Source of the DNA: a virus
Taxonomy: Duplodnaviria; Caudoviricetes
IMG/VR virus record: IMGVR_UViG_3300020541_000004
Span: 1-41,017 of that record
Length of the DNA stretch: 41,017 nt
Direction: 5' to 3' (one strand)
The position numbers were made by a program, and so were the translations under genes. How positions within the stretch are numbered: the stretch's first letter is position 1; every line of letters begins with the position of its first letter. Below the pieces are notes generated by a model that was not told the DNA's origin, did not search any database, and saw only the letters and a program-made list of their open reading frames with translations. Shown piece after piece: positions 18,299 to 39,627 of the stretch.

Positions 18299-18299
18299 T

Positions 18300-22000: not shown

Positions 22001-22001
22001 G

Positions 22002-22376: not shown

Positions 22377-22383
22377 TAAGATT

Positions 22384-22704
22384 ATGTCAGAGGAAACTGA
22401 AGAACACAACGATGGTACACTATCTGGATTGAAGAAAACAATCATTGGTGTATTAACTACTGCAGTGATGGGCTTAGGTACATGGGGTATTACCCAAATC
22501 ACTGGTGGAGGAGATGAACCAGCTGCTGTACAACAAGCACCTGCTCCAGTTATTAACATTACTAACTCTAACGAACAAGCTCAACAAGTTTCTGGAGGAA
22601 CTACAGTGATTAAAGAAAGAGTAGTAGAGAAAGCTGCAACACCTGCAGAAAAACCTAAGAAAAAAGAAGGTGATGAGTTTAAAGAAGCAGAACCTAAGTG
22701 GTAA
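22384..22704 (+). CDS. Single-TM protein with a Pro/Ala/Gln-rich tail
   Basis: TM segment IIGVLTTAVMGLGTWGI followed by a low-complexity linker. Confidence 0.7.
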   Translation: MSEETEEHNDGTLSGLKKTIIGVLTTAVMGLGTWGITQITGGGDEPAAVQQAPAPVINITNSNEQAQQVSGGTTVIKERVVEKAATPAEKPKKKEGDEFKEAEPKW

Positions 22705-22723
22705 CTAATTTAATTTAATTTAT

Positions 22724-23347: not shown

Positions 23348-23371
23348 CTTAATTAACTCCCATGGACGCTG

Positions 23372-23593
23372 ATGAACAAAAGGATAAAACTGAAGAGAGT
23401 AAACTCTCTGAGAGATATAAGTTTAATGCTAGCAATGTTCTTCTTGCCATTGGGATACGATCTTTTATTCAAGACTCTCTTAAACATTACTGGCAGCTTC
23501 TGGACCACAGATATCATATTTTATTGCTTATCAGGGGTATTTTGGCTGCTATATTGGGTTCTATCCAAGTATTCTAACAAATTGAGAACATGA
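23372..23593 (+). CDS. Small two-TM membrane protein
   Basis: Two hydrophobic segments; ATGA overlap with the next gene. Confidence 0.6.
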   Translation: MNKRIKLKRVNSLRDISLMLAMFFLPLGYDLLFKTLLNITGSFWTTDIIFYCLSGVFWLLYWVLSKYSNKLRT

Positions 23594-24321
23594 AAAAGAA
23601 ATATTTTGTTTGGTTTATGTTTTTTTCCGGCATGCTCCTCGTGGGGCATGCTGGTTTTTCTCAAATAGCTAAGACTAGCACTGAGAATTATAAAGCAGAC
23701 TTTGAAAAAGCTATTGACATTAGTCAGTTCCTTGATTATGAAGGCAAGCAGATTCCTATCCAAATTCTTAAGGCAGGTATTTCAGAAGAAATGTATGAGA
23801 TGTATCCTGAGCTTAAAGAAAAGCGGGTAGGTCTAGGTGTTGCTAATATTTCAATGGAATACCTAGAAAATCTAAACAGATTTAAGTTTACAGAAGATAA
23901 AACTGAGATTAAGAACCGTATGGTTAAACAGTTTCAAGCTTCTCAAGCGGGTATTTCTGAAAATCAGTTGGACGGACGCGGGAAGATTAATCTAGCAGAA
24001 TACTTTGTTACTATAGAATGCTATGATTATTCTATTTCTGAAGATGAATCTGTTTATATTAAAGGTGATACTAAACAACAGCTAGTAACTCGTATTGGTC
24101 TTCAAGTGAGATTTACTAATGCAGAAACTGGTACTGTTATATCTGGATCAGGATTAGGTGAAGCTACTACTACTAAAGAAACATCTGGAGTAACTGATGC
24201 TAGTTTAGATCCTGTTGCTTTTAATCAATCTTCTATTTCAATTGCTACTAAAAAAGCTCTAGACATTGCTTGTGCAAGAATCCTGGACCGAATGGTTAAA
24301 AAGGGAATCTTTGAAAAGTAA
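23590..24321 (+). CDS. CsgG/HfaB-family protein
   Basis: Signal peptide; GLGVANISMEYLENLNRFKFTE, GKINLAEYFVTIECYDY and IGLQVRFTNAETGTVI match the CsgG-family pattern (RFxxxER...G....A......G.I...LRLVDVxTGEV). Confidence 0.75.
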   Translation: MKKKYFVWFMFFSGMLLVGHAGFSQIAKTSTENYKADFEKAIDISQFLDYEGKQIPIQILKAGISEEMYEMYPELKEKRVGLGVANISMEYLENLNRFKFTEDKTEIKNRMVKQFQASQAGISENQLDGRGKINLAEYFVTIECYDYSISEDESVYIKGDTKQQLVTRIGLQVRFTNAETGTVISGSGLGEATTTKETSGVTDASLDPVAFNQSSISIATKKALDIACARILDRMVKKGIFEK

Positions 24322-25646
24322 TGAAAAAGTTTATTTTATCCTTAATAATAGTAGTATTACTACCTTTTTATGGATATACTCAAACACTGGTTCAAACATT
24401 TGTTGACCCATGTACAAAGGTTGTTTCCACCTTTGTTATCCCTCTTACTGGTAACACTGTTATTGTTTTTTATAACAAGTCTAAAATTTTTTCAGCTGCT
24501 GATGTACGTAGTGGCGCATTTAATAGTTGGCTTAATCAAGTTTATGAAGATTACAGGAAACTTTCTCCTTGTTCTGTGGCTCAGACTACAGCAACTACTA
24601 CTCAAATTACAGCAGGTGCTGTTTCTTCTGCTGTAAGTGCTGCAGCTTCTACAGCTGCTTCTGCTGCTGCATCTAGTGCAGCTTCTCAAGCCGCAAGTTC
24701 AGCGGCTTCTTCTGCTTCTAGCAGTGCAGCTTCGTCTGCTAGTTCTTCCGCAGCGAGCTCCGCTACTAGTTCTGGCTCTTCCTCACAGTCCTCAAATGGG
24801 TCAAGCACAGAATCTAGTAACAGTAACTCTAGCAGTAATGAAAGTTCTTCAGAGTCTAGTAGCTCTGAATCTGAATCAGGTGGTTCAGAAGAATCATCTT
24901 CTGAGTCAGAAGGTGAAAGTGAAGGTGGTGGAGATTCTAAATCTAAATCTAAAGGTGGGTCTAAAGGTGCTGCAAGAGTAAATCCTATATTGTTTAATAG
25001 TGATTTTACTGCAGGACAGTCACTTAATAATAGTTTTGCTGTAATCATGACTGGAGGAATATCCCAGTCATCTATGACAGGTCAGTCTTCTTGGGGAGTA
25101 ACTGCTATGGTATGGAGTAACTTCCAACAATTTGCTCTTAGTAGTAGATATACTGCTATGCATTTTGATGAAGGTAAACTTACAGGAATTTCTAATTTTG
25201 GTTTAACTGCAGCCTATGCTTTTGGTACAACATTTGGATTTGGTACCTATGCATATATTTATCCTATGGGTAAATGGGGTGTTGCAGGTGCTAACGTAAC
25301 TGTAGCTTTTGCTGGTGCGGAATATTTACCAGATCCTTCTAGTACTCCAGGAAAACAAATGAGCTTGACTAGCTCAATACTTTTATTCTACACTAAACCT
25401 TTTACAGTTAATCGTAGAATTACATTATCACCAGATGTTTATTTTTCTGGCAGCCCTTTAGTATATCTTACTAAAGAAGGTACTTTTACAGAGTCTAAAG
25501 AAGTAAATATTCTTACAGGACTAGGTGTTGACTACTCTTTTACAAGTAGATTTAAATTAAACATAGGCGTCAGAACTAGTATAAGCTCTAGTCCTGACAT
25601 ACCTATGTTATTTTTTGGTGTAATAGGTTCTAAAATTAATCTTTAG
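24321..25646 (+). CDS. Putative outer-membrane beta-barrel protein with a Ser/Ala-rich then Ser/Glu-rich linker
   Basis: Signal peptide, small two-Cys domain, ~130-aa low-complexity linker, then ~220 aa of alternating amphipathic strands ending FFGVIGSKINL. Confidence 0.65.
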   Translation: MKKFILSLIIVVLLPFYGYTQTLVQTFVDPCTKVVSTFVIPLTGNTVIVFYNKSKIFSAADVRSGAFNSWLNQVYEDYRKLSPCSVAQTTATTTQITAGAVSSAVSAAASTAASAAASSAASQAASSAASSASSSAASSASSSAASSATSSGSSSQSSNGSSTESSNSNSSSNESSSESSSSESESGGSEESSSESEGESEGGGDSKSKSKGGSKGAARVNPILFNSDFTAGQSLNNSFAVIMTGGISQSSMTGQSSWGVTAMVWSNFQQFALSSRYTAMHFDEGKLTGISNFGLTAAYAFGTTFGFGTYAYIYPMGKWGVAGANVTVAFAGAEYLPDPSSTPGKQMSLTSSILLFYTKPFTVNRRITLSPDVYFSGSPLVYLTKEGTFTESKEVNILTGLGVDYSFTSRFKLNIGVRTSISSSPDIPMLFFGVIGSKINL

Positions 25647-27154
25647 GCAATAGTTTTACCTTTCTCATTTACATTGTAAATCTTATGACCATCAAATACA
25701 ACAACTTGGTTATTTTCAGAATATTTTTTAATTACATCTGAATTAAAATGACCAAAATTTGATCCTCTAACACCAATAAAGAATGCTTTATCAGAATAGG
25801 TTCTACAAGTATCTTCTGCATCTGTAATAATTAAAGCATTTATGTCGTTTTTTGCAACAGAAACTACAGCTTTATCAATAGTTGTACCACCATCTACATC
25901 TAGCATTGCAATAGAAACAGGATCATTTCTAAACTTTTTAACAGAGTTGTTAAATAGATATACATCGTTTAACATGCCTAGTTCACTAAGTTTAATTGTA
26001 AAAGCTTTACAGAAATCAAGTTTAGTAATTCTATTTCCGTTTACATCTTCTAGACCAGAACCATCAGACATTGATCCAGAAATATCTATGTAGATATCCA
26101 CTTTACCAATTGACTTTTCATCTTTAATTAGAATATCTTCTACAAATATCTTTCTAAGTTTTGGATGTAACTCAATGTAGTCTTCTAGTCCACTGATATT
26201 GTCTGTATTAAACAAATCATCATAAGTAACTTCTTTTTTAGAACTGAAGTAAGAGGCGGATTTATCCATAAGCTTTTTAATCTTATCCTTAAGAGTACCT
26301 AAAGACATATTGATTTTTTCCATTTCTCTTGCCACCTTTCTAATGTAATCATTGCTTAGCTGTCCTGCTTGTTTACCTCCATCTTTAAGAACATCATTGA
26401 ACATTTTTTCTTGAGTTTCTTTATCTACTGAACCATCAAGATCTTTACATGTATCAGTTGCATTCTGCATGGCTTTTTCAAGCATTGACTTAGAATCATT
26501 ATCATCAAACATATTTTTCATTGCTTGATCTGTTTGAGTATTATCTCCTTCTCCACCTAAGCCATCTGTAAATTGTTTATGTGATTCAGGATCTAAGTAT
26601 TCCATCATTGCATATCTAATAGCAAAGTAAGCCATAATGTTTCTAGCAAATATTGCAGATTTAAGATTACTACCTTGTGTCATAATCTTTGATACTGGAT
26701 TATTTGCTTTCTCAAGAAGCTTAAACTTTGTATGATTAGCATCTGTTCGATCTTCAAATTCTAGCTGATCCATTTGGTGATAGAAAAGCTTATGAATATC
26801 TTTAGTTAGATGCCTAGGAAGTGCACGATAATGCTCTTTAACTTTCCTATGGAAAGTGTTTACATCAGGCTTATTACCAGGATCATCTTCAGTTGCTTCT
26901 GTAAAGTTTCCAGAACGGATTAGCTTTCTATAAGCATCTCCAATACAACCTTGATCATTTATATATGTATCAACTACTGTATCAACTTTACGCTCGTCAA
27001 TGTGATGCATATAAGGCTTAATCAAATCTGGTCTCTTGTAAAAATCAAGTTTTCCAAATAAGCCTTGGCTGTTGTTATAGTAAGACTGAATCTCACCTTT
27101 CTTTACTTTCTCAAGAATAGTATATACATTCTTGTATTGTTTGGAACCTGCCAT
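25643..27154 (-). CDS. VWA-domain protein (ViaA-like partner of a MoxR ATPase)
   Basis: MIDAS DISGSM, GGTT and IITDAED; adjacent to the MoxR-type ATPase. Confidence 0.85.
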   Translation of the reverse strand: MAGSKQYKNVYTILEKVKKGEIQSYYNNSQGLFGKLDFYKRPDLIKPYMHHIDERKVDTVVDTYINDQGCIGDAYRKLIRSGNFTEATEDDPGNKPDVNTFHRKVKEHYRALPRHLTKDIHKLFYHQMDQLEFEDRTDANHTKFKLLEKANNPVSKIMTQGSNLKSAIFARNIMAYFAIRYAMMEYLDPESHKQFTDGLGGEGDNTQTDQAMKNMFDDNDSKSMLEKAMQNATDTCKDLDGSVDKETQEKMFNDVLKDGGKQAGQLSNDYIRKVAREMEKINMSLGTLKDKIKKLMDKSASYFSSKKEVTYDDLFNTDNISGLEDYIELHPKLRKIFVEDILIKDEKSIGKVDIYIDISGSMSDGSGLEDVNGNRITKLDFCKAFTIKLSELGMLNDVYLFNNSVKKFRNDPVSIAMLDVDGGTTIDKAVVSVAKNDINALIITDAEDTCRTYSDKAFFIGVRGSNFGHFNSDVIKKYSENNQVVVFDGHKIYNVNEKGKTIA

Positions 27155-27180
27155 TTTTTCGTTTGTGGGTTATAAAATTA

Positions 27181-27214
27181 AGAGGAGACGCATCCAATAA
27201 GATGCATCTCCCCT
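27181..27214 (-). terminator. Intergenic hairpin between the ATPase and VWA genes
   Basis: ggagacgcatc/gatgcatctcc stem, with a G.U pair only on the minus strand. Confidence 0.5.
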
Positions 27215-27281
27215 TTGTTTAATACATAAACGTTTCCTTTATATGTATAAACATTTTCTGTTACATATTTATAACCCCATT

Positions 27282-28409
27282 TTAAAAAGGGTTTTCAGAT
27301 TCTGCAATTTGAGACATCATTTCTTCTAATTGACTATTATCTACATTATCAACACGTGCTGGATGATTTTGTAGAATATACTGCATAGAAATTTCAATCT
27401 CATTAATCTGACCAGAATCCATAATACCTCTAGTTGCATATGTATTAACTAGACCTTCGATTTCTGCAATAGCTAGTTCTAGCTGTTCGTTAGTTTGATA
27501 ACTATGAAGCATCTCAACCTTACTCATTACTGCTTTAACTTCTGGAGACATTAGTTTATTCTGTAGTTCAGAACCTGCAGTCTGATCAATCATGATCTGA
27601 GCTGTCTTTACAAGAGCTTTGTCTACTGAAATATCCCAGATGTACGATACGGCTTTAGAAAGTGTAGGTACAAATGTAAGAGTACGATCTGAACTGCTTC
27701 CATAACCAACTTCTAGATACTTTTCTAGCTTGTTTGCTGGGATTTCTACTTCATTGATTTCAGCTTTATTTGGAATACCAATTGAGAACTTCTCACGATA
27801 GTCACGACCACCTTTGTTGTAGTACTTAACCATTTCACCTGCAGACACTCTATTAACAGTATGCTTCAACATAAATCTGTCCCAGAATGGAGAACCTTTC
27901 TCTTCTTTAGGGATTTCATTACACGTAGCAACAAACAGTTTCCACTTACATGGAATCTTATGCTTACCGTTAAACAAGAATTTCTCGTTCATTACGCCCA
28001 ACATAGCGTTACGGATAGCTGAGCTAGCTTTGTCTACCTCGTTAATAATAACAATCTCAGCATCTGCAATTGGAGTGCTTAGTGAGTACTCATTATTTGT
28101 AAACAACTTACCTAGATCAGGCATACCCTTAATCTCTGATGCTTTGGTACCTTCATCAGTTTCTAAGATGTAAATCTTTTCAGCAAAATCTTTTGCTGTC
28201 ATTTTACCATCTTTATTCAACCATGCTTTAGCATAATCAACTACGGTCTTAGTCTTTGCTACACCTGGCTGACCAATCAATAGACATGGTAGTCCTGTTG
28301 CTTCTGCCAAAGCTAGCATTTTAAATACTTCCTCTTTGTTAATCAATGAGGTCTCAATCTGACGCACTTCCTGCGTAGTTTTCTTTGTAATAGATTTTAC
28401 TTTAGACAT
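27282..28409 (-). CDS. MoxR/RavA-like AAA+ ATPase
   Basis: GQPGVAKT Walker A, IINEVDK Walker B variant, NAMLGVMNE, ATCNEIP and FWDRF. Start moved to 28409 (MSKVKS) because the ORF-track extension overlaps 28447..28842. Confidence 0.88.
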   Translation of the reverse strand: MSKVKSITKKTTQEVRQIETSLINKEEVFKMLALAEATGLPCLLIGQPGVAKTKTVVDYAKAWLNKDGKMTAKDFAEKIYILETDEGTKASEIKGMPDLGKLFTNNEYSLSTPIADAEIVIINEVDKASSAIRNAMLGVMNEKFLFNGKHKIPCKWKLFVATCNEIPKEEKGSPFWDRFMLKHTVNRVSAGEMVKYYNKGGRDYREKFSIGIPNKAEINEVEIPANKLEKYLEVGYGSSSDRTLTFVPTLSKAVSYIWDISVDKALVKTAQIMIDQTAGSELQNKLMSPEVKAVMSKVEMLHSYQTNEQLELAIAEIEGLVNTYATRGIMDSGQINEIEISMQYILQNHPARVDNVDNSQLEEMMSQIAESENPF

Positions 28410-28446
28410 GTTAGTGTTAATTATAAAGTGTTTTTTTGTGGGTTGA

Positions 28447-28842
28447 TCAAAGGTTTGCAAATGCTGCGAACTCATCATCTGCTGTTTCTGCAGGTACGAA
28501 CTCATCTCGTTCGTCACTGTTTCCAGAAACGATGATTGGTATTGTGGATGTTGTTTCACTACTCTCAGATAAGTGTTCCACATTTCCTTCATTGCTGGGT
28601 CCGTCAGTGGATACGGTGGTATTTCTGTCATCTGTGTCATCAATAATGCTAAATATGATAATACTTGTTTCTGCGTCTTTAAGCTTAGGATGCTTGCGGA
28701 TTATAGCAATTTGCTGATCTTTAGCATTATACTTTTCTTGAATAGATCCATAACCTAGATCATCTTTCTTTAACCATGTAAGACCATTGTTTAGATCTTC
28801 TAGAACTTGAGATACATAGATCTCCACTTTGTTTACTGCCAT
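28447..28842 (-). CDS. Hypothetical protein with an acidic tail
   Basis: 131-aa co-oriented ORF. Confidence 0.7.
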   Translation of the reverse strand: MAVNKVEIYVSQVLEDLNNGLTWLKKDDLGYGSIQEKYNAKDQQIAIIRKHPKLKDAETSIIIFSIIDDTDDRNTTVSTDGPSNEGNVEHLSESSETTSTIPIIVSGNSDERDEFVPAETADDEFAAFANL

Positions 28843-28860
28843 TTTGTTAAATGTTTAGGG

Positions 28861-29574
28861 TTACCAATAAATAAATCCAGGCTCGTCTCCTTGTTTCAAA
28901 ATTTCATTAGTCTTAGTAAAAACATCGTTACAATCCCATTTACCACCGCTATATGCAGCAGAAGCAGGATGTGATGCTTTTAGTATGTAATGATTTTGAC
29001 CAAGTACGGCCTCTAGTTCTTGAGCCTTAGCTCCCAATAAAATAAATATCAAACCTGACCTTGTTAGATTAAGCATATCTAGCAAGTACATAATAAAGTC
29101 ATTCCATATATCGTAATGACTACCTACTTTGTCTATCTGACAAGTAAGAGCTGTATTAATTAGTAATACACCTTGGTTAGCCCATCGTTTTAAATCTGGA
29201 TCTTGATAGGTTGGCCAATCTTGGTATACTGTACGCTCTACTTCTTGAAATATAAACTTTAAACTAGGTTGCGGTTTACCTGTGCGACCACAACTAAACG
29301 CCATACCATCGGCTACATTCATGTGAGGATATGGATCTTGTCCAATAATAACAACCTTAAGGTCTTTTTCTGGACATTCTTCAAATGCTCTAAATACATC
29401 TTTTAGTGGAGGAGTAAAACGTTTTCCTTCCATTCTTTGTAAATAGAGAGTTTCTAAAATTTGATCAAAGTCACTAGATTGCATAAATCCTCGTAACTTT
29501 GTTGACCATCCTGACGGAAGAAGTCTTTCTATAAGTTTACACTTTATTTCTTCCAGGTTTATTTCTTGTGTCAT
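28861..29574 (-). CDS. ung: Uracil-DNA glycosylase, family 1
   Basis: VVIIGQDPYP, ADGMAFS, QPSL, WANQGVLLIN and SHPAS. Confidence 0.95.
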   Translation of the reverse strand: MTQEINLEEIKCKLIERLLPSGWSTKLRGFMQSSDFDQILETLYLQRMEGKRFTPPLKDVFRAFEECPEKDLKVVIIGQDPYPHMNVADGMAFSCGRTGKPQPSLKFIFQEVERTVYQDWPTYQDPDLKRWANQGVLLINTALTCQIDKVGSHYDIWNDFIMYLLDMLNLTRSGLIFILLGAKAQELEAVLGQNHYILKASHPASAAYSGGKWDCNDVFTKTNEILKQGDEPGFIYW

Positions 29575-29613
29575 AAACTTTTATATTTTTGTATAAAACA
29601 AAAACCATATAAT

Positions 29614-29892
29614 ATGTCAAATATTAAGATGATTAAGCAAGATGCTGCTATTCAAGTAGTCATTAGTTCCGGATTTCTTCAGAAAATTCAAGCCATTGTA
29701 GTTCATATGGTTAATGAGCGTACAGATGAAGAATTAGTTGAGTTTCAAAAACTAGCCATGGCTAAGGAAGATCTTACACTAGACTGGATGGAACATCTGT
29801 CTACCATGATGCTTTTAATGAATGAAATTGAAACTAAAGCAGAAGAACAAGGTTTTACTTATGATGCAGACATTAACCAATTGGACAGTTAA
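29614..29892 (+). CDS. Lone plus-strand hypothetical helical protein
   Basis: ORF track 29566..29892; the ATG at 29614 (MSNIKM) lies downstream of a TATTTTTG -7-like element at 29584-29591. Confidence 0.7.
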   Translation: MSNIKMIKQDAAIQVVISSGFLQKIQAIVVHMVNERTDEELVEFQKLAMAKEDLTLDWMEHLSTMMLLMNEIETKAEEQGFTYDADINQLDS

Positions 29893-30271
29893 CACTGATA
29901 CCAATATCTATTGCAGCTTGAATAGCAAGAGATAGTTCTTCTCTAGAACATTCTCCAAAACTTTTAGCAAGAAAGTATTCTTTGCCGCTTACTTCTCTAG
30001 ATAAGCATAAGCCTGCCTTATCTTTTATTAATAGTTTCATATCACTAAAAGGTTCTCCTACGTGTAGTGATAGTTCTCTTATCATTGCATGTAGTTTAGC
30101 TAGCTGAGGTAGTGTACCATCATCGTGCTGAACTTCAAAGAAGAATTCTACTATGGTACCATCAGGAACATCTGATACAAACTGTTCATGTTGTTTAGAA
30201 ATGGCAAGACTAGGAAACTCTAGTCTGCCATTTCTTTTAATAAACTTGCCATTAAAGGGTTGATGATTCAT
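29873..30271 (-). CDS. Hypothetical protein, possibly NinB/Orf-like
   Basis: QLAKLHAMIRELS and SFGECSREELSLAI resemble NinB-like motifs; weak match. Confidence 0.5.
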   Translation of the reverse strand: MNHQPFNGKFIKRNGRLEFPSLAISKQHEQFVSDVPDGTIVEFFFEVQHDDGTLPQLAKLHAMIRELSLHVGEPFSDMKLLIKDKAGLCLSREVSGKEYFLAKSFGECSREELSLAIQAAIDIGISVNCPIG

Positions 30272-31379
30272 ATGAAGATACGTTTACATCAAAGTATTTA
30301 ATTTTTTTAGGATCTAAATCTTTAAGAGCTTCAGTAACCCATCTTTCATCTACGCTGTCTTTGTAACATAGAATATGTATGTACGCAGTTTCAGTAGGAT
30401 TAAGTCTTAGTAATCGACCTATTCTTTGACTAGACTTGCGCTCATTACCGTATGCATGCATAATAATACCAGCTCTTAGATTGGGTATATTAATACCTTC
30501 ATTAAGTTGAAGCACACATGATAGCTCTGATATCTTTCCATCTTTAAATCTTTCCAAGTTATCTTCTGAATCTAGATTATTAGAATGATAAGAGTATTTA
30601 GATATTCTATCAGCTTGGTCTTGCGTATTGCAAAATATAATACACTTGTCTTCTATATCTGAAAGAAGCTTTTTTACATAAGACTCTTTAGTCTTAAAAT
30701 CCATTAGCACCCGCATTCTCATTACAGAAGCAATCTGCTCTTGTTTTTTGCTTATAGCTTGACCTATTCGTTTAGTCCAGTAGTCATAACTTTTACGTTC
30801 TGATGTATAAAACTCCATACCATTACTCTTCATCTTAACAGGAATACTGTTTACATTAGACAATGGCATTTTATGCACTATGATTCTATAGTCATTTAGA
30901 ATATCATCACTTACAGCATCATCAGTAATATATTTGTACTTAATAGGACAATACTGACTTACCATTTTACCCTTTTCAGATTGTTGATGCCTTGGTGGCG
31001 TGCCGGTTAGACCCAATACTTTACCATTAAACTGTCCAAGAAACAAATGATGAGATGTAAGTAAACTATGACACTCGTCAAGAATTACTATATCAAAATC
31101 TCCAGTGTTCTTTTTATTCAAAGACAAGTAAGTTGTAAACTCAGCGTCTTCAATATCTATATTGAATTTAGCTGCATCATTAAGCCAGCTATCAAAAATA
31201 GATATCTTAGGAGCTACAATCAAAACACGTGGTTTATTTTTCATAACTTTTTGAAAATGATCTATATACTGTAGGCCAATTAAAGTTTTACCTACACCCA
31301 TAGATATACCCAAACCACAACGTTTATTATTTATTGCAATATCAAGAGCTTCTTTTTGTATTTCTTCTCTCTTAGACAT
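30252..31379 (-). CDS. Superfamily 2 helicase (DExH)
   Basis: SMGVGKT, IVAP, DECH, GLTGTP, LNEGINIP and QRIGRLLR. Confidence 0.92.
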   Translation of the reverse strand: MSKREEIQKEALDIAINNKRCGLGISMGVGKTLIGLQYIDHFQKVMKNKPRVLIVAPKISIFDSWLNDAAKFNIDIEDAEFTTYLSLNKKNTGDFDIVILDECHSLLTSHHLFLGQFNGKVLGLTGTPPRHQQSEKGKMVSQYCPIKYKYITDDAVSDDILNDYRIIVHKMPLSNVNSIPVKMKSNGMEFYTSERKSYDYWTKRIGQAISKKQEQIASVMRMRVLMDFKTKESYVKKLLSDIEDKCIIFCNTQDQADRISKYSYHSNNLDSEDNLERFKDGKISELSCVLQLNEGINIPNLRAGIIMHAYGNERKSSQRIGRLLRLNPTETAYIHILCYKDSVDERWVTEALKDLDPKKIKYFDVNVSSYESSTL

Positions 31380-31650
31380 CTTGTTCTATTTCTACATAAC
31401 AATCATTTGCACATAGTGCAATTATTCTTAAATGCTTCATGCATTCTGCATCTGCCCTACTTACAGCTTTTCTAAGATTGTTATCTACCACAGCTTGTAC
31501 AAAACTACCGCCCTGTATAAGATTATCTCTAGTCATCATTACAGATATCATTATCTGTATGATGTGTTCGCTTACAGTTTCTTCGTAATCATTAAGAAAA
31601 CGAATTACTGCATCTCTATATTCTTGATATGTTTTATTCAATGCATTCAT
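31372..31650 (-). CDS. Hypothetical protein
   Basis: GGSFVQAVVDNNLRKAVSRAD motif; tight gene packing. Confidence 0.65.
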   Translation of the reverse strand: MNALNKTYQEYRDAVIRFLNDYEETVSEHIIQIMISVMMTRDNLIQGGSFVQAVVDNNLRKAVSRADAECMKHLRIIALCANDCYVEIEQDV

Positions 31651-31653
31651 GTT

Positions 31654-32037
31654 TTAAAGTCTTGTTTCTGATAAACCTAATTCTTTAGCTTCTTTAGGAT
31701 GAAGCTCTATCCATGTATGACATGTTCTGCATACAGCTAACCATGTAGCAATTTTTAGATGGTTTTCACCTCTACCTGCTTTATGATGCACATCTGTTGC
31801 TTGGCCCGTACATCCTTGAAGCCTTGCTTTACAGGAAGAATTTACTACAAGGTATGCAGTACGTAATTTAGAATACTGATCTACTGTTTCCTTCATCTTT
31901 TTAGAAATGGGAGCAATAGATTTAGGCTTCTCAATACTATACCAGCATTCCTTGCAGTATTTATCTTTTCCTTGAGACTTCCATATGTGTTTCATCTGGT
32001 TGCAACCAGCACATAATTTAAGTTTCGCTTGAATCAT
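31654..32037 (-). CDS. Zn-finger plus HNH-like nuclease
   Basis: CAGC...CKEC; CKARLQGC...DVHH...VCRTCH. Confidence 0.7.
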   Translation of the reverse strand: MIQAKLKLCAGCNQMKHIWKSQGKDKYCKECWYSIEKPKSIAPISKKMKETVDQYSKLRTAYLVVNSSCKARLQGCTGQATDVHHKAGRGENHLKIATWLAVCRTCHTWIELHPKEAKELGLSETRL

Positions 32038-32254
32038 AGTTATTACTTAGAGCCGGAGAACTAAGATTACTCTTACTTTTAATTACATAACTATCTGTTA
32101 CAGGCTTTCCTAAAATACTTACAGGCTGAGTAAGCTTTGTTACCTCTATAGAAGATAATCCATCAAGTGTTTTTTCTAGAAGCAATCTATCAAGCTCTGT
32201 TTCAGGAATAAGTACAAGTTGAACGACTCCGTTTACTACAAATGTGTAATTCAT
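32018..32254 (-). CDS. Hypothetical protein
   Basis: 78-aa co-oriented ORF. Confidence 0.6.
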   Translation of the reverse strand: MNYTFVVNGVVQLVLIPETELDRLLLEKTLDGLSSIEVTKLTQPVSILGKPVTDSYVIKSKSNLSSPALSNNYDSSET

Positions 32255-32257
32255 ATT

Positions 32258-32779
32258 TTAAGATAATTTAAAGAAGTTATAAGGTAATAATTTAGATTGT
32301 ATTAATTTTTCTGCAATAATTGTTTCACTAGTAATCCCCAAATCTCTAAGCGTTAATGTACATTCAAGATCTCGGTCGTAATATTCATTCTCTGAAAGAA
32401 ACTTAATAATTGGAGATCTAGGAAATAAAGAAATAAGTAGGCTGTCTACTTGTTTCCATATAATTTCTTGTTTCCATCTATTAAGCATACGCTGTACTCT
32501 TGTATAGAGCACCATGATACTTCTCTTTTTCTCTGCAGGCATTGCCTTAAGTTCTTCTGCAGTGTAAAAGTTTAAACCATATAAAGCCTCAGCATATAGC
32601 CTTTCTTGTATAGGGTTAAATCCTACTTGTTCAATCTTTTGATACTTCACTGTACCATAAAGTTGAATTTGCTCAACACCAGTTGGTTCATACTTTATGA
32701 ACTTATGTTTGTTGACATCTCCAAAAGATACAATTATACCTTTGGAGTTAGCGGATACTGTTTTGTGTGGATTGCGCAT
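32258..32779 (-). CDS. Hypothetical protein
   Basis: 173-aa co-oriented ORF. Confidence 0.7.
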   Translation of the reverse strand: MRNPHKTVSANSKGIIVSFGDVNKHKFIKYEPTGVEQIQLYGTVKYQKIEQVGFNPIQERLYAEALYGLNFYTAEELKAMPAEKKRSIMVLYTRVQRMLNRWKQEIIWKQVDSLLISLFPRSPIIKFLSENEYYDRDLECTLTLRDLGITSETIIAEKLIQSKLLPYNFFKLS

Positions 32780-32811
32780 GATTGATAAGGATTGTGATTA
32801 TGGAATGGAAT

Positions 32812-32844
32812 AAAAATAGAGAGCCCATTTCTGAGCTCTCTATT
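32812..32844 (-). terminator. Rho-independent terminator
   Basis: aatagagagc/gctctctatt 10-bp stem plus a minus-strand U tract. Confidence 0.7.
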
Positions 32845-32850
32845 GAGGCA

Positions 32851-33357
32851 TTAACCTAACTCTGTCTCTTCAATTAAGACTCTACGTCCTAAGTCTCTAA
32901 GACTATTGCTTTTTAAAGAAGTAATCTCTTTCTGTGCTCTTTGTACTTCACGGATCTCATTCGTATTATCATGAGTAATTAACTCATCATATGCTTCCTG
33001 ATTACTTGTGAAGAAAGTTTGACGATAAATTGGCTGATCGTCAATTGTACATACAACTCCTGTTTGTCCAGCAATCTTTAGATCTCTATCTGGATTCTCT
33101 GTGTTAAACGGAATAAGAGATTCTTTTACAATAATCTTACCTGAAAGCTCATGGCCTTCTACAAATCCAGCTTGTGCTAGATCTTCTACTTTACCTTTAA
33201 TTAACGCTGAACGCTTAACGGGTTTTAACCAACCAGCTTCGCTAATCTGTGTTACTGATTGTTCAACGCGTACATAACCGTACTCTGGATTGTTCAAGGA
33301 TACACCAATAACATTTCCATTTACATCTGCTGTTACTCTAACTTTACTTTGTTTCAT
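32851..33357 (-). CDS. Hypothetical beta-rich protein
   Basis: 168-aa ORF flanked by terminators on both sides. Confidence 0.75.
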   Translation of the reverse strand: MKQSKVRVTADVNGNVIGVSLNNPEYGYVRVEQSVTQISEAGWLKPVKRSALIKGKVEDLAQAGFVEGHELSGKIIVKESLIPFNTENPDRDLKIAGQTGVVCTIDDQPIYRQTFFTSNQEAYDELITHDNTNEIREVQRAQKEITSLKSNSLRDLGRRVLIEETELG

Positions 33358-33380
33358 TTGAACATTAATTTAACTTAAAT

Positions 33381-33407
33381 AAAAAACCCCTAGATTTCTC
33401 TAGGGGT
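33381..33407 (-). terminator. Rho-independent terminator
   Basis: acccctaga/tctaggggt stem plus a U6 tract on the minus strand. Confidence 0.75.
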
Positions 33408-33428
33408 CATAACTTTTAATTTTTAACT

Positions 33429-33701
33429 CTAATCTTCTTCAGGTTTATAATCTATATCCATGTAACTAATCTTGTCTTCATTTGTTACATCTGTTAGATC
33501 AGATGGCATTTCAAGAAAATCATCATCATCGTCTTCATCAAATACAGGAGATTTTTTCTGAATAACTGAACCAAACCATGGATCTTCTAATGTATCACCA
33601 TAGTTATATGCAATCAAATATTGAAGTTCTTCATCAGTCATTTCAAAGTACTGCTCCGTACTTATCTCAATTACCTTTCCATTAGGGAGTTGATAAAGCA
33701 T
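33429..33701 (-). CDS. Acidic hypothetical protein
   Basis: 90-aa ORF with an Asp-rich C-terminal half. Confidence 0.7.
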   Translation of the reverse strand: MLYQLPNGKVIEISTEQYFEMTDEELQYLIAYNYGDTLEDPWFGSVIQKKSPVFDEDDDDDFLEMPSDLTDVTNEDKISYMDIDYKPEED

Positions 33702-33791
33702 TATGCTATTAATTAGTTTATTATAAAACTAATTAATATAGTATAATTTACAAATGCTGTATAAACAATCTATGGATAATAGAGCTATAAG

Positions 33792-33974
33792 CTATGACTC
33801 TTTAGACTTTTTATTTTGATTGTAAACTCTTTTTTTCCAATAAGCATTAGTTTTATTAATAACTTCTTGCCTTTCGTTAAGCTTATCGTTTAAAACCTCA
33901 ATTTCATTTTCTAATTCTTTGACTTTCTTGTGGTTTGTAAACAAACCTTTTAACCAATTAATCATAATATACAC
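33792..33974 (-). CDS. Small coiled-coil protein
   Basis: 60-aa ORF with a heptad pattern. Confidence 0.55.
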   Translation of the reverse strand: MYIMINWLKGLFTNHKKVKELENEIEVLNDKLNERQEVINKTNAYWKKRVYNQNKKSKES

Positions 33975-33979
33975 TTTAT

Positions 33980-34510
33980 TTAAGAAGTAAACTTTTTATA
34001 CAGATCATTAAATCTACCATTACTGTTTGATATAGATGTTGATATATTCTCAAGTTCTACAAGTTCAATATTTTCTACTAAATCACCATTAGGTGAAACT
34101 GACATTCTAACTATTTCATAAGCATAGGCTTCAGATCCATCAACCATATCAATAGTAATAATTAAAATTTCTCTTTTAATAGGTATTTTTTTGTAGTCTT
34201 CAGGTTTATAATCATCTACTGGGATCTCACGAAGCCATGCTTCAGATGACCAACCAACAGCTTTTATGGTAAACTTTTGATTAACTTCAGCTGCTAATTT
34301 AGGAATTCCTTCATCAACAAACAACTGTTTGTTCTCATCAGAGTTTACTACTTCTTCAGGAAGAACTATTTGCAAAGCACATGGAGCATTAGTGTCTTTT
34401 AGATTGCCCATTATTGTAATAACAGGTTCTAAATTACCATTCTTTAGCAAAGTTTCTTTAGTACTTTCAATATAATAATCTTTAATTTCTTTAAATTCTT
34501 CTTTTGTCAT
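33980..34510 (-). CDS. Hypothetical protein
   Basis: 176-aa ORF with SEAW and KREILII motifs. Confidence 0.7.
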   Translation of the reverse strand: MTKEEFKEIKDYYIESTKETLLKNGNLEPVITIMGNLKDTNAPCALQIVLPEEVVNSDENKQLFVDEGIPKLAAEVNQKFTIKAVGWSSEAWLREIPVDDYKPEDYKKIPIKREILIITIDMVDGSEAYAYEIVRMSVSPNGDLVENIELVELENISTSISNSNGRFNDLYKKFTS

Positions 34511-34520
34511 AATAAATTAT

Positions 34521-35090
34521 TTAGTCCCACCATTCTTCAGAACGTCTCTTAAGGATCTCATAGATAAGATTATTACATTTTTCTTGACGTATGTAGCCCA
34601 TAAATAAAGAAATGGTTTCTTTATCATCTAAACGTGAATGTTTGCTATACTTTTTTAAGGCAGCTCGTTTAGCTCCTGGATATTTTGCAATGTATTCATC
34701 TAGATTTTCAGATTCTAAATCACCTAATATGTCTTCGCCAAGAACTACATACTCATATCGTTCCATATTATAATACTCTTCATGCTTGCGCTCTATAAGA
34801 TTTAATACAACAGTCATCCAGTAATTATCCCTTTGCACATTAGTGTGCCTATTAGATGTCACTAAATATTCACGTTGATACTCTATCTTTTTTTGCAGAA
34901 GCTTAGTAATATAATAATCATCCCAATCTCTATCTTTATAGATAGTTGGTGCCCATCTTATAATATTCCATATTCCAATAAAGAATGATCTAATACGCCA
35001 ATGTATAGTTCTTAAGATTTTATTTCTAAATCTGCCATGCTCCCATGCTGTTTTTTTAGATATGGGTAGTTTAGTATAATATTTCATCAT
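34521..35090 (-). CDS. Hypothetical phage protein
   Basis: 189-aa ORF with W.PTIYKDRDWD and C-terminal WWD motifs. Confidence 0.72.
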   Translation of the reverse strand: MMKYYTKLPISKKTAWEHGRFRNKILRTIHWRIRSFFIGIWNIIRWAPTIYKDRDWDDYYITKLLQKKIEYQREYLVTSNRHTNVQRDNYWMTVVLNLIERKHEEYYNMERYEYVVLGEDILGDLESENLDEYIAKYPGAKRAALKKYSKHSRLDDKETISLFMGYIRQEKCNNLIYEILKRRSEEWWD

Positions 35091-35107
35091 CTAATTATTT
35101 AGATATA

Positions 35108-35144
35108 AATAAAAGAGTGATGAGAACCAAATCTCACCACCCTT
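35108..35144 (-). terminator. Rho-independent terminator
   Basis: Minus-strand RNA AAGGGUGGUGAGA/UCUCAUCACUCUU 13-bp stem with two G.U pairs, followed by UUAUUU. Confidence 0.7.
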
Positions 35145-35590
35145 AATTCGTTAGTTTTGAGGTCAGGCTTGGAATAATTTACCATTTGTTTATCCTGTTT
35201 TTGCTACTGTACGATAAGTAGCTTCCAATACGTCAAGTTTAACTAACTGCTCCTAGATGTCCGGTTTTATAATGGCTCTCTACAGTGCAATACTGAGAGG
35301 ACATATCACGCAGTCGGTTTTATTAACTGCTGACTTCAATCTAGTAATGATATAAAAAGGTCTATCTCAGGGTTCCATAGTTCTTGTGTGACTAGACTTG
35401 TTCCGATCGTCTGTACTAAACAATTCTCTAAATTTCTTTAGATACTATGTGGTTCCTGATACTGCCCTGGCTAGTGTAGTTAATACGCCATGTAGCTCCT
35501 AAGATCAGACCTTTTATAATTAACTATTGCGTCAGATCAATGCGTGCGCGAGCATTTGTCTTACTTGATGTTAACACAATCAGTTAATGT
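35145..35590 (-). ncRNA. Candidate large multi-domain structured non-coding RNA
   Basis: ORF-free ~440 nt with three closed multi-stem domains (35150-35247, 35253-35344, 35351-35518), a minus-strand GAAA tetraloop (35427-35442) and a downstream terminator. Confidence 0.55.
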
Positions 35591-35592
35591 CT

Positions 35593-35880
35593 TTATTTCA
35601 ATATAATGGTCTTACGAGTTTTACCTTTACCCATATACTCCCTGGATATTATGCCCTTAGATTGAAGTGTTTCTATACTTCGTTTAATACTAGAAGGACT
35701 TGTACCACATTCATCTGCCATTCGGTAAACACTAACAATTAACTCATTAGATTGACTATTTGCAAACGTACACAAATATGCATACAAGCCTTTGTCCTTT
35801 AAAGACAACTCTGGGTCTCTCATTACTTCGCTAGAGACTTGACCAAAGCCCTTTATTAAACGTGGATTTATGCCTTTCAT
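35593..35880 (-). CDS. Winged helix-turn-helix protein (replication-initiator N-terminal-like)
   Basis: FGQVSSEVMRDPELSLKDKGLYAYL...SVYRMADECGTSPSSIKRSIETLQSKGII. Confidence 0.8.
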   Translation of the reverse strand: MKGINPRLIKGFGQVSSEVMRDPELSLKDKGLYAYLCTFANSQSNELIVSVYRMADECGTSPSSIKRSIETLQSKGIISREYMGKGKTRKTIILK

Positions 35881-35908
35881 GTATCATGTGGTTGATGTCA
35901 GTGTACAA

Positions 35909-35939
35909 CAAATCTACAAGGATAATTAGATTATACAAA
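35909..35939 (-). promoter_or_regulatory. Bacteroidota housekeeping-sigma-type promoter
   Basis: Minus strand TTTG (35939-35936)-N19-TAGATTTG (35916-35909), upstream of the HTH gene. Confidence 0.7.
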
Positions 35940-35973
35940 AAATGTAGAGGGAGCCAAAGACTCCCCCAACATT
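35937..35973 (-). terminator. Rho-independent terminator
   Basis: Minus-strand AAUGUUGGGGGAGUC/GGCUCCCUCUACAUU stem plus a U tract. Confidence 0.6.
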
Positions 35974-35992
35974 AAACATAAACCCAATGTAT

Positions 35993-36577
35993 CTATTTAA
36001 AGACATCCTTTAAGAAATCATCTATATCAAAATCTCCTGAGTTACCATTACCAAACTCTCTACTGAGTTGTTTTAGGTAGGTATCAAAGTTGTAATGTGA
36101 GGTTTTAACAATAGCTATTCTTTTAATAACTGAATTTACACTAAGATCATCAACACCTTCTTCATCGTCATTATCTTCTTTATTTCTAAGATCTTCTATA
36201 AGATTGATAATGCTAAGTTTTAGCTTATCTTCTTTAGTTTTCTCCTTAGAATTTAGATACTTATATCTACCATATGCTTCCATGGCTAGTTTTTGATATG
36301 ACATAAAGTTAAGTAGAGTAAACTCATACTCTAAATGACTATCAATCATTCTTAAGCATCTTTGAAGATCTCCTGTAACGGTAGACATTTCTTTTGGTGC
36401 ATCTTCTTCATCTTCAAATAGCTCTTCCCTTTGAAGAGCATTTGAAAATGATGAAAAGAAAATACGTTCTCTACACTTAGTTCTCATGTAGTCAGGAACT
36501 GTAAGAGCCTGATGAAATTGCTCTTTAGTATGGTCGAGTTCTCTTTCTTTTAATAGCATATTAGAAAGATTTTTCAA
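35993..36577 (-). CDS. Hypothetical protein
   Basis: 194-aa co-oriented ORF. Confidence 0.7.
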   Translation of the reverse strand: MKNLSNMLLKERELDHTKEQFHQALTVPDYMRTKCRERIFFSSFSNALQREELFEDEEDAPKEMSTVTGDLQRCLRMIDSHLEYEFTLLNFMSYQKLAMEAYGRYKYLNSKEKTKEDKLKLSIINLIEDLRNKEDNDDEEGVDDLSVNSVIKRIAIVKTSHYNFDTYLKQLSREFGNGNSGDFDIDDFLKDVFK

Positions 36578-37504: not shown

Positions 37505-37627
37505 TTACCAGATTATAATATATTCATGAACCTCTATAAAATGGTTCCACCAGATTGCAAGTGCAGTAACTATTAGTCCAAGTCCTACAACTATTCCTAT
37601 TGTTTCTAATGCTTCAAGCTTTTTCAT
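37505..37627 (-). CDS. Small TM peptide (40 aa)
   Basis: Manual translation MKKLEALETIGIVVGLGLIVTALAIWWNHFIEVHEYIIIW; ATGA overlap with the upstream gene. Confidence 0.5.
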   Translation of the reverse strand: MKKLEALETIGIVVGLGLIVTALAIWWNHFIEVHEYIIIW

Positions 37628-37848
37628 TTTTTTAATGAAATTGAGTATTTAAATGCAGCATCATCAATAGCCTTATAGATAGGTTCTTTAATTGACTTAT
37701 CACTAAAGGCTAGTTCAAGTATTTTATATGCTTCTTTCTTTTTACAGTTATACACCAAGGTGATTACTTTAGTGTTCCATGGGATATCTACAAAGTACCC
37801 CCGCTTTCTTAAAGCTTTCTTTGCTTTCTTTTCAGTAATTTTTTTCAT
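37624..37848 (-). CDS. Small basic hypothetical protein
   Basis: 74-aa ORF directly downstream of the ribozyme array. Confidence 0.6.
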   Translation of the reverse strand: MKKITEKKAKKALRKRGYFVDIPWNTKVITLVYNCKKKEAYKILELAFSDKSIKEPIYKAIDDAAFKYSISLKK

Positions 37849-37884
37849 TTGATTTATTGATTGAGATGGATTTATTAATTATTA

Positions 37885-38134
37885 TCCCTCTGCACTCAGT
37901 TGTAGCATAATGAGGTTTAAATGATATCTATGTAAAAGCCATTCTCTTCATACATAAATATCATCTCATTACGCTACAACTGCTCACCCTTGGGAGCTGA
38001 TTAATTGACGCTGATTTAAGGGTACAGCCAAACCTTAAAATTAATCAGGTGGTTTCACATCTTAGCCTGCAACTACTATCTTGCTCTACATCGTACTAAG
38101 AAGTCTTTATATCCACGTGAGTTGTGGTGCATTA
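37885..38134 (-). ncRNA. Twister-type ribozyme, copy A (120-nt insertion at the P4/L4 junction)
   Basis: U|AA UGCA CC ACAA CUCAC [insert] C UCCCAAGG GUGAG CAGUUGUA...UACAACUG AG UGCA GA GGG A. P2, P4, P5, T1 (CCC/GGG), T2 (CC/GG), A1 and the catalytic G are all present. Confidence 0.7.
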
Positions 38135-38279
38135 TCCCTCTGCACTCAATTGTAATACATTCAAGAACTATGTAATGAACATAGACCATCCTTAGCTACG
38201 TCACACTCTGTACACAAGTGCTTTGGCCCATATGGATATTACAACTGCTCATCCTTGGGAAATGAGTTATGGTGCATTA
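38135..38279 (-). ncRNA. Twister-type ribozyme, copy B
   Basis: U|AA UGCA CC AUAA CUCAU U UCCCAAGG AUGAG CAGUUGUAAU...AUUACAAUUG AG UGCA GA GGG A; predicted cut between 38279 and 38278. Confidence 0.85.
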
Positions 38280-38333
38280 AATAGTAGAGTTTCACTTCGC
38301 ATTATATCTCTACTAAACCCCGCTTCTAGGGTT

Positions 38334-38473
38334 TCCCTCTGCGTTCAGTTGTAATTACTCACACTTGGGGTCTTATTTCCAGAGATGAGGATGCTTACGA
38401 TCTCCTAGTATCTTATGACACTAGTTAGTTTATTACAACTGCCTGTTCTTGGGAAACAGGTTATGACGCATTA
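38334..38473 (-). ncRNA. Twister-type ribozyme, copy C
   Basis: U|AA UGCG UC AUAA CCUGU U UCCCAAGA ACAGG CAGUUGUAAU...AUUACAACUG AA CGCA GA GGG A; compensatory changes relative to B in P2, P4 and T2. Confidence 0.85.
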
Positions 38474-38548
38474 ATTTGTATGTCCATCCTACATGCTTTC
38501 GCATGCATCACGGATGGATTAAGGCACTACGCGGCCACATACAGTTTA

Positions 38549-38818
38549 TTAATACATATCGTGGTAAGGAGTATGATATGTAATTTGGTCTGAACCAGGT
38601 ATATACTTTTCAAACGTTACATCCGTACTCCTAAAGATAGACTTGCCTGTATATTTGTAGACAAGTTTAACCAACCACATAGGATAATCCCATACTCTCC
38701 AACCATTATACATGTATTGTAGTTTGAGGAATAGTAAAGAATAAGTATCTCTAGTGGTAATCCATTCGTAACTAGTGTACGTTGACACTATGTAAGTAGT
38801 CTTTCTGAATATCTTCAT
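38549..38818 (-). CDS. Hypothetical aromatic-rich protein
   Basis: 89-aa ORF upstream of the ribozyme array. Confidence 0.55.
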   Translation of the reverse strand: MKIFRKTTYIVSTYTSYEWITTRDTYSLLFLKLQYMYNGWRVWDYPMWLVKLVYKYTGKSIFRSTDVTFEKYIPGSDQITYHTPYHDMY

Positions 38819-38839
38819 GACGATCTAATTTGGTTTTAA

Positions 38840-38921
38840 TGAGGTCAAATATGACCCCTCCTTAACATAGTAATAAGTATACTATATAGTATCTATGTTA
38901 AAGGGGTCAAATATGACCTCA
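38840..38921. repeat. 82-bp imperfect inverted repeat with two GGTCAAATATGACC sites
   Basis: Identical 14-mers at 38843-38856 and 38905-38918, inner arms ttaacatag/ctatgttaa, and a perfect palindrome atactatatagtat at 38879-38892. Confidence 0.85.
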
Positions 38922-39140
38922 CTAGAAAACTTTATCAAAATACTGTTCATTGTGAACGTAGTATTCACGAGCCGGGAAACTAGCCATCCACCAACCTATA
39001 AATACAGAGTATCCTATGAACCAACCCGGAGTTTGGATAATAACACTGTAAGGATGAAAGAGTAAACCTATGGTGGATAGTAATAGGTAAAACAGAACGA
39101 ATGCACCTACATAGATGCTGATAAGAATGATTGATTTCAT
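38922..39140 (-). CDS. Small two-TM membrane protein
   Basis: Hydrophobic ORF; ATG at 39140 (MKSIIL) preferred. Confidence 0.6.
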   Translation of the reverse strand: MKSIILISIYVGAFVLFYLLLSTIGLLFHPYSVIIQTPGWFIGYSVFIGWWMASFPAREYYVHNEQYFDKVF

Positions 39141-39285
39141 ATGTTTTTGAATGAGGATGGAAAACAAGCACGTAGTTTATGTAAAATGGCCCATCTTGCT
39201 TAAGGATTGGGTTGAAAACTGCCACTCTTACGAGCAGGCTAGAGATACCTTCTGTTGCCAGGCTGGTATTGAGCCCCGATCTTAA

Positions 39286-39627
39286 TCAAATTCCTGCACT
39301 TATCCAGTTGGTTACGGCTTGTGACATGCTAATATTCCTTTGAGAAAGATTCTGTATCTCCTCAAGAGTCATAACATGTACGTCTCCGTATGTATAAATA
39401 CCATGGTCAGGATTAGTAGTGTAGACATCTACAATACCATTATCACCATAGTACTCATCACAGAGTTCCTGAACAAAAAACTTATTGGTGTAAGTTTTAT
39501 AGTTCAGAGAACCGTAACAACGTAAGCATGTAAGATAGAAAAATCCATCTTTATGCTCACGCAACTGGGAACGCAGGTTGAAGATCTTTTCCTCTAAGGA
39601 TTGTATCTCCTGGATCAACTGTTCCAT
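39286..39627 (-). CDS. Hypothetical protein
   Basis: 113-aa ORF with an N-terminal coiled coil. Confidence 0.65.
   Translation of the reverse strand: MEQLIQEIQSLEEKIFNLRSQLREHKDGFFYLTCLRCYGSLNYKTYTNKFFVQELCDEYYGDNGIVDVYTTNPDHGIYTYGDVHVMTLEEIQNLSQRNISMSQAVTNWISAGI

Follow-up and report, generated by a model that had tools for sequence, protein, structure and literature searches.

The window analyzed here is a single stretch of 41,017 bases that makes up a whole virus record and is 31% complete. It encodes a set of phage replication genes (DNA polymerase, primase, DnaB, a Sak4-like annealing protein, ribonucleotide reductase, and an SNF2-type helicase) together with an endolysin, and its minus strand carries long ORFs from position 25643 to the end of the window. 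Also encoded on the minus strand, within the replication arm, are a spore photoproduct lyase-like protein (3269-4123) and a protein with a DnaA C-terminal helix-turn-helix (16281-16760). A search with the DNA polymerase gave no placement of the phage, but the DnaB search did. The best annotated matches of this DnaB fall among “uncultured phage cr” records at ~30% identity, and it matches proteins in 18 of the 26 genomes that carry the ribozyme family described below, with identity up to 54%. Because the window itself has no capsid gene, the label “crAss-like” rests on relatives, and the Crass_capsid family is present in all five near-complete carrier phages tested. Judged from these sequences, the record likely represents an uncultured crAss-like phage.

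The region of interest lies between two minus-strand ORFs that belong to no known family. An 89-amino-acid ORF (38549-38818) is located directly upstream of the cassette, and a 74-amino-acid ORF (37624-37848) follows 37 nt after its last element. When positions 37800-38600 were compared with annotated phages by blastn, only four matches were returned, all short and weak. ARAGORN finds neither tRNAs nor tmRNAs in the window. Scans for sigma-70 promoters (18 versus 15.9) and for terminators (4 versus 2.0) stayed at chance level, and a Bacteroidota promoter octamer has no minus-strand match upstream.

The original prediction held that this cassette contains three twister self-cleaving ribozymes. 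A descriptor search covered both strands of the whole window for UAA, a 4-bp P2, a 2-bp T2, a P4 of at least 4 bp, CCCAA, and GAGGG. Exactly three matches were found, all on the minus strand, compared to none in 200 dinucleotide shuffles regardless of whether a long L4 insertion was allowed. Three twister cores are thus present on the early-gene strand, in the sense orientation of the early genes. The letters of P2, P4, and T2 in every copy are as had been written. All three copies also have UAA (the scissile N|A followed by a second A, with the general acid at +1), the T1 pseudoknot CCC/GGG, and the general-base G after P2'. We consider the twister fold of these copies nearly certain.

Copy 1 (38335-38473, minus strand) has a plain L4. 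Its parts, as defined by the descriptor and by family pair counts, are U(-1) at 38473, A(+1) at 38472, P2 at 38470-38466/38344-38340, CCC at 38453, P4' at 38446-38442, a GAGGG whose general-base G is at 38339, and GGG at 38337-38335. Alignment places its P5 at 38346-38441, enclosing insert 1 (about 38356-38431; fold z -2.0). Copy 2 (38136-38279, minus strand), likewise with a plain L4, has U(-1) at 38279, CCC at 38259, GAGGG with its general-base G at 38140, and a P5 at 38147-38247 that holds insert 2 (fold z -0.06). A linker of a single nucleotide (38135) separates the GAGGG of copy 2 from the U(-1) of copy 3. Copy 3 (37886-38134, minus strand) has U(-1) at 38134, P4 at 38121-38117/37987-37983, CCC at 37994, GAGGG with its general-base G at 37890, and a P5 (37897-37982) that forms a long hairpin. 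Across the three copies, P5 spans 86-101 nt. Copy 3 departs from the template proposed for all copies by a 120-nt insertion on the 5' side of L4.

Cleavage had been predicted at 38473|38472, 38279|38278, and 38134|38133, and these positions agree with ours by homology to the twister class. The pieces between the predicted cuts measure 194 and 145 nt, again as proposed. P1 was expected to comprise at most one pair, and we counted 1, 1, and 0 bp in copies 1, 2, and 3; the assumption that a missing P1 is tolerated agrees with the available text of two studies (PMC5408937 and PMC11662667). By analogy with the class, copies 1 and 2 are very probably able to cleave, and copy 3 is a reasonably likely candidate.

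The Rfam twister models that had been suggested as a check give no twister match in the window, either at the gathering threshold or at E≤10, and the type-P5 model RF02684 likewise has no match there. Matches in the window to miRNA and snoRNA models are sub-threshold hairpin noise. Seven loci with short members of the family also yield no Rfam match at gathering. For the shortest member (L001, 57 nt), twister-P1 is the only Rfam match at E≤10, with a score (18.8 bits, E 0.055) that is far below the 67.2-bit gathering score of RF03160. The elements resemble type-P1 twisters but differ from them in the P1 stem and the Rfam score, and we file them as a variant of the class. They share with RF03160, as far as its available description goes, the order U|AA-P2-T2-P4-L4-P5-P2'-G-A-GGG (with T2 as a possible pairing), the CCC/GGG pseudoknot, the general-acid A, the general-base G, and the optional nature of P0 and P5. 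In contrast to that type, P1 in the window copies comprises 0-1 bp, and P5 reaches 86-101 nt and holds inserts that can be exchanged. P2 gains a fifth covarying pair in competition with T2, and the L4 of copy 3 carries the conserved 120-nt arm. The auxiliary stems named in the available text of PMC5408937 and PMC11662667 are P0, P3, and P5 only.

Two other ways of reading the array were rejected. A permuted type-P5 arrangement across neighboring copies fails because P2' of copy 1 (CGCA) mismatches P2 of copy 2 (UGCA), and between copies 2 and 3 only one nucleotide is left to close P1. A CRISPR-like array does not fit periods of 194 and 145 nt, the predominance of single elements among related loci (see below), or the recurrence of inserts between phages. 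The longest match of any insert elsewhere in the window is 10-12 nt.

The first two copies are each preceded by a folded module. We call the first of these UP, a free-standing three-way junction (38476-38545, minus strand; fold z -3.9) that ends 2-3 nt before cut 1. Among 8 sequences, 8 of its 21 consensus pairs show two-sided change. UP serves as a twister P5 insert in 4 of 12 loci and is found elsewhere in the other 8. The second module, SP, is made of two hairpins between copies 1 and 2 (38281-38333, minus strand), ends 1-2 nt before cut 2, and occurs in 22 viral loci. Two-sided change was seen at 8 of 16 consensus pairs in 15 SP sequences. A twister or twister-like element comes immediately after SP in 8 of the 22 loci, which include some near-identical strains. 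More generally, the 70 nt upstream of twisters fold with z below -2 in 43 of 132 cases, compared to 19 of 98 control stretches (P=0.015), and these upstream folds mostly end 0-6 nt before U(-1).

Several further elements were observed in the neighborhood and in relatives. A third conserved noncoding module lies at 39740-39630 (minus strand); in L096 and L146, 1 nt separates its end from a following twister, and in L064 the gap is 99 nt. At 39241-39295 on the minus strand, the end of the alphaproteobacterial tmRNA model gives a weak match (21.3 bits, gathering score 50; E 0.0023). RNA contigs cover this stretch, ARAGORN finds nothing in it, and the same short motif lies ~480 nt before SP and a twister in L198. 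A block of ~50 nt (39172-39223, minus strand) is common to relatives in two RNA runs (X2 and X3, introduced below) that have different flanks, and is likely another RNA module. A long imperfect inverted repeat at 38835-38925 (-41.9 kcal/mol as RNA) is nearly identical in L177 and could be a DNA-level element. Finally, an element in L192 and L211 (minus strand, 1175-1254 and 711-790, respectively) keeps P2, P5-like ends, and GAGGG and has lost the L4 core, with UP located 10 nt after.

The insertion in copy 3 (37997-38116, minus strand) is located between the 5' strand of P4 and UCCCAAGG. It forms an arm of two stems on the 5' side of L4, with a variable loop on each stem, and 49 viral loci in IMG/VR match the pattern for this arm-bearing form. 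In the 32 members that could be parsed, the first five inner positions of stem 1 are paired in 27-32 members and the first eight positions of stem 2 in 29-32, the two parts range from 24 to 87 nt and from 14 to 105 nt (stems included), and the bulged core of the arm is nearly invariant. The first arm stem of copy 3 is 93-94% identical to those of L168 and L142, and the arm as a whole has a fold z of -0.74. The same bulged motif is found at the base of the second hairpin of SP (38281-38309) and of the first stem of the arm (38048-38116), which raises the possibility that the arm evolved from a free-standing module. A search for this motif gave 42 matches in arms, 6 in SP, and 0 in any other setting.

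Pattern scans of IMG/VR recovered 13 loci with a first pattern and at least 121 in a further scan, from which we estimate ~380 stretches. GTDB genomes gave 19 matches, all in metagenome-assembled contigs, and the core is intact in 11 of these by a loose descriptor and in 10 by a stricter one. The taxonomic labels of these contigs mix Bacteroidota with unrelated taxa, which suggests that they are binned phage contigs. The ribozyme family is large, is missed by Rfam, and is found almost only in phage contigs. Without de-duplication, 148 of 157 plain and 39 of 45 arm-bearing elements have an intact core, and 15 of the 202 retain P2 and P5 although the core is broken. In 99 of 107 loci, the strand with the ribozyme is also the one with more ORF coverage.

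To count base pairs, we used members that were found by the 5' half alone. There are 179 of these, and in 143 a complementary P2' and GAGGG occur exactly where P5 places them; the remaining 36 (truncated loci, true variants, or cases in which the P5 search was mis-anchored) were excluded from pair counting. All counts refer to sequences rather than to independent events. Positions 3 and 4 of P2 switch between C-G and U-A and between A-U and G-C, respectively, across the family. Four P4 positions that were free in the search are paired in 110-111 of 111 plain members, with three to four Watson-Crick types each, and P4 is paired in 30-32 of 32 arm-bearing members. GAGGG, which contains the general-base G and GGG, is kept in the 143 members even though they were located without requiring it. 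Two parts of the core fall outside this support: CCC/GGG is invariant and so gives no covariation evidence for T1, and the search patterns fixed the UAA letters, so family counts do not test them.

P1 has at least 4 bp in 37 of 134 family members, compared to ~7.6 expected, and 0-1 bp in 70 of the 134, a set that includes two false descriptor hits in L084; these two belong to five odd rows that were otherwise set aside. P1 is thus optional in the family.

The change of T2 between CC/GG and UC/GA had been taken as covariation of the pseudoknot. This change is real among the three copies, but it is atypical of the family, and a fifth P2 pair explains it better. Among the 143 intact members, the outer T2 base, which directly follows the 4-bp P2, changes strictly in step with the base preceding P2' (C-G in 122, U-A in 21), which gives P2 a fifth covarying pair, whereas the T2 partner of the outer base is G in 20 of the 21 cases with U. 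T2 is still possible by wobble: it can pair in all 143 members, 20 of them by U-G, although its register is ambiguous, and the Rfam alignment of L001 puts the outer base in T2, as the original prediction did. The last L4 base can also pair with the first, in all 111 plain members (U-G in 110, U-A in 1) and as C-G in 31 of 32 arm-bearing members. Two folds are therefore conserved together.

A survey of copy number in relatives, which had been proposed as a check, indicates that the array is not a conserved layout. In 112 de-duplicated loci of at least 2.5 kb, one element is present in 94, two in 14, and three in 4. The 1-nt gap found between copies 2 and 3 recurs in 3 of 24 tandem junctions. 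The cassette had been described as repeats that alternate with variable cargo; variable parts are indeed real, but they are located inside P5 and the L4 arm rather than between the repeats.

Close relatives illustrate how the parts are rearranged. Locus L177 is 95.8% identical to the window over 39800-38337, and its counterpart of copy 3 is 98.8% identical, but it lacks copy 2 and has ~210 extra nt. At the position of copy 1 it carries a core with a broken T1 in which a homologous insert 1 is kept, so cutting is not always needed. A noncoding block of ~210 nt occurs in L177 (about 1735-1945) and between the two twisters of L190, and is absent between copy 1 and SP in the window. L190 has the core type of copy 1 with another insert and has insert 1 in another core. 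The first hairpin of insert 1 is kept despite sequence change. In addition, an L4-expanded twister in L135 has a 3' half that matches that of copy 2 (38260-38134) at 96% identity.

The inserts are highly diverse, with 100 clusters among 115, and thus most have no relative against which they can be compared. Of the 13 inserts that are shared, 11 are carried by different cores and 6 by both plain and arm-bearing cores. Exchange at the conserved stems appears to be the simplest account of this sharing. Where homologous inserts differ on both sides of a pair, the pairing is preserved in 32 of 39 cases, against ~4 in 9 expected by enumeration; each pair of inserts was scored both ways, and so about half of these cases are independent. 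When only one side has changed, pairing is lost in 36 of 65 cases. As a class, the inserts have at most a slight folding advantage over control stretches (mean z -1.03 for n=100 versus -0.72 for n=71; below -2 in 17 of 100 versus 13 of 71). A pattern scan with insert 1 listed 105 loci that are chance matches except for a known relative, and a three-sequence profile of insert 1, when applied to every locus, picked up L177, L190, the window, and one weak match. Similarly, 9 loci were obtained in a scan with insert 2, and homology is confined to the L135 contig.

Three freshwater RNA runs (X1, X2, and X3) hold small shares of the region. Contigs over copy 3 span 37881-38223 in X1 (5 differences), 37881-38134 in X3, and 37904-38103 in X2, and there are more pieces upstream. 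The X1 contig (depth 18.6) extends across site 3, with 89 letters on one side and 253 on the other, so uncut RNA, or DNA, exists there. This contig counts against complete cleavage at site 3 unless it comes from DNA or from a precursor. The contigs carry no information on ends, strand, or level, and they may originate from RNA or DNA. One relative in X3 has UP 7 letters after the 3' end of a twister, which is another arrangement of the same parts. A control stretch (16500-36499) has two short low-complexity matches in X1 and scattered pieces in X2 and X3. Contig depth in X2 and X3 is high within 24504-25170, around 24630-24685, in what looks like a low-complexity match from other organisms.

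With moderate confidence, we lean toward the reading that the cassette consists of self-processing ribozyme scaffolds that carry exchangeable folded RNAs. It builds on what can be seen directly in the sequences: the fold, its conservation and covariation in the family, the L4 arm, the location of the ribozymes immediately after conserved RNA modules, and the trading of inserts between cores. Each of the three copies would cut the early transcript at its own 5' end; the likely products are two small folded RNAs (194 and 145 nt) and an mRNA that starts with a folded leader. Going by the chemistry of the class, each cut should give the upstream piece a 2',3'-cyclic phosphate end and the downstream piece a 5'-OH end, and ends of this kind may slow RNA decay. 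The module in front of the cut (UP or SP) would thereby receive a defined, blocked 3' end, and SP would form the 3' end of the 194-nt product. The ribozyme fold that remains on the 3' product may protect and display the insert in P5 or the arm, and the ribozyme would then act as both nuclease and carrier. Cut 3 would start the mRNA of the 74-amino-acid ORF, with a folded leader of 285 nt. As a guess, the inserts might be protein-binding decoys that act early in infection.

For the scaffold reading, the conserved P5 stem of 9-10 bp and the core blocks would be crossover points, probably for the Sak4-like annealing protein. Recombination at these points would make copy number and content differ between strains, and the three-copy array may be one outcome of this process rather than a fixed system. 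Rates of cleavage could also differ between copies. The available text of PMC11662667 reports that natural twisters tolerate P1 defects and that every tested P5-bearing member, in a small sample, cleaved to more than 0.80, whereas T2 defects and L4 insertions lowered cleavage and an upstream P0 hairpin lowered it from 0.85 to 0.40. Given these penalties, slow cutting is possible for copy 3 and for the copies that follow UP and SP.

Perhaps the ribozymes only punctuate the early message, with the inserts as passengers and the array as a by-product of repeat recombination, and we regard this as possible but doubtful. The preponderance of single-copy loci (94 of 112), the differences in array content between near-identical strains, and the weak average folding of the inserts relative to controls are all consistent with punctuation. 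The 3' flank of copy 3 repeats the first letters of the core, and a short-homology duplication there would give a 1-nt junction. There is also precedent in clustered prophage hammerheads, according to the available text of PMC3088659. However, no protein gene lies between the three copies, where the longest ATG frame has 18 codons. Pairs kept through two-sided changes in homologous inserts (32 of 39), a module that is conserved both free-standing and as an insert, and the near invariance of the bulged arm core in 32 members also argue against it.

The two conserved folds raise another idea, that the arm or the inserts gate cleavage, with a ligand (protein or small molecule) shifting the RNA between an inactive fold in which P2 and P4 are extended and an active fold in which T2 is closed; the copies would then be natural allosteric twisters. 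The outer T2 base can pair with the base before P2' in all 143 members, the L4 ends can pair as described above, and an RNA contig bridges site 3. We nevertheless consider gating unlikely, since 115 inserts in 100 clusters show more diversity than a single ligand could account for and no association with a downstream metabolic gene was seen in the window.

RtcB uses 2',3'-cyclic phosphate and 5'-OH ends as substrates, and so the pieces between cuts might be ligated into functional circles by host RtcB or by the ribozyme itself. The predicted ends would suit this enzyme, which our search finds in a Bacteroides control genome, and in the 145-nt piece the two ends would be separated in sequence by one nucleotide, a gap seen in 3 of 24 junctions. 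Yet the same search finds RtcB in 0 of 26 carrier genomes, and an RNA_ligase family protein occurs in only one (G006:C1:80138-80716, in the record of L036). A lone copy, which is what most loci hold, offers no way to make a circle. The 16 RNA contigs contain no back-joints, although contigs drop rare forms, and clustered hammerheads gave no spliced or circular products in the available text of PMC3088659. We judge circles to be very unlikely. Lastly, we consider it very unlikely that the folds no longer cut and serve only as scaffolds for inserts or as DNA-level recombination cassettes: broken cores that keep P2 and P5 (15 of 202 elements, including the counterpart of copy 1 in L177) and the contig that bridges site 3 would fit, but all three window copies are intact, and 143 members have kept the general-base G and GGG although neither was required to locate them.

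Clustered self-cleaving ribozymes in phages are already known. According to the available text of Perreault et al. 2011 (PMC3088659), clustered hammerheads in prophages were described and tested in 2011, with all sites active in three tested arrangements. As in the window, several self-cleaving ribozymes lie close together on a phage transcript and were proposed to cut long transcripts; unlike the window pieces, which are predicted to be noncoding and to consist of a ribozyme fold with an insert, those hammerheads flank protein genes. Theta (HDV-like) ribozymes of gut phages, as presented in the available text of PMC10879173, similarly lie directly 3' of a structured RNA, are postulated to make its 3' end, and have hosts that include Bacteroidota. 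They belong to another ribozyme class and their partner is a tRNA, whereas the window has uncatalogued modules and inserts inside the ribozyme. In retrozymes (PMC6765202, available text) and in the engineered Tornado system, ribozyme repeats flank a variable RNA and leave ends fit for ligation, but the window family is mostly single-copy, has no sign of circles or retro-mobility, and has no RtcB in the 26 carrier genomes.

In the papers searched, we found nothing on this twister family, its L4 arm, or its inserts, although subscription papers, Roth et al. 2014, and the CHiTA supplement may hold short members; the words “ribozyme,” “twister,” and “crass” are absent from the main text of PMC10690425. 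What is added is that long exchangeable P5 inserts, the L4 arm, and the fifth P2 pair widen the known twister architecture. The natural sites at which a twister tolerates large insertions should be useful for aptazyme design.

The available text of PMC10085705 and PMC6765202 reports that ribozymes are enriched near one another and near phage genes, and PMC6765202 treats the biological role of bacterial and phage self-cleaving ribozymes as an open question. The cassette offers a usable test case for what these ribozymes do in phages. Plain, abutting, and L4-expanded copies occur together on one 690-nt template, and near-identical strains provide natural deletions as well as a broken copy, which allows direct tests of cleavage, end protection, and insert function. 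More tentatively, crAss-like phages may run a modular small-RNA system in which the twister is both processing enzyme and protective carrier. Dozens of unrelated folded RNA effectors, placed in P5 or the arm and traded between phages by recombination at the conserved stems, would be released early in infection to act on host proteins such as those of defense systems, and some tandem units might be circularized by host RtcB.
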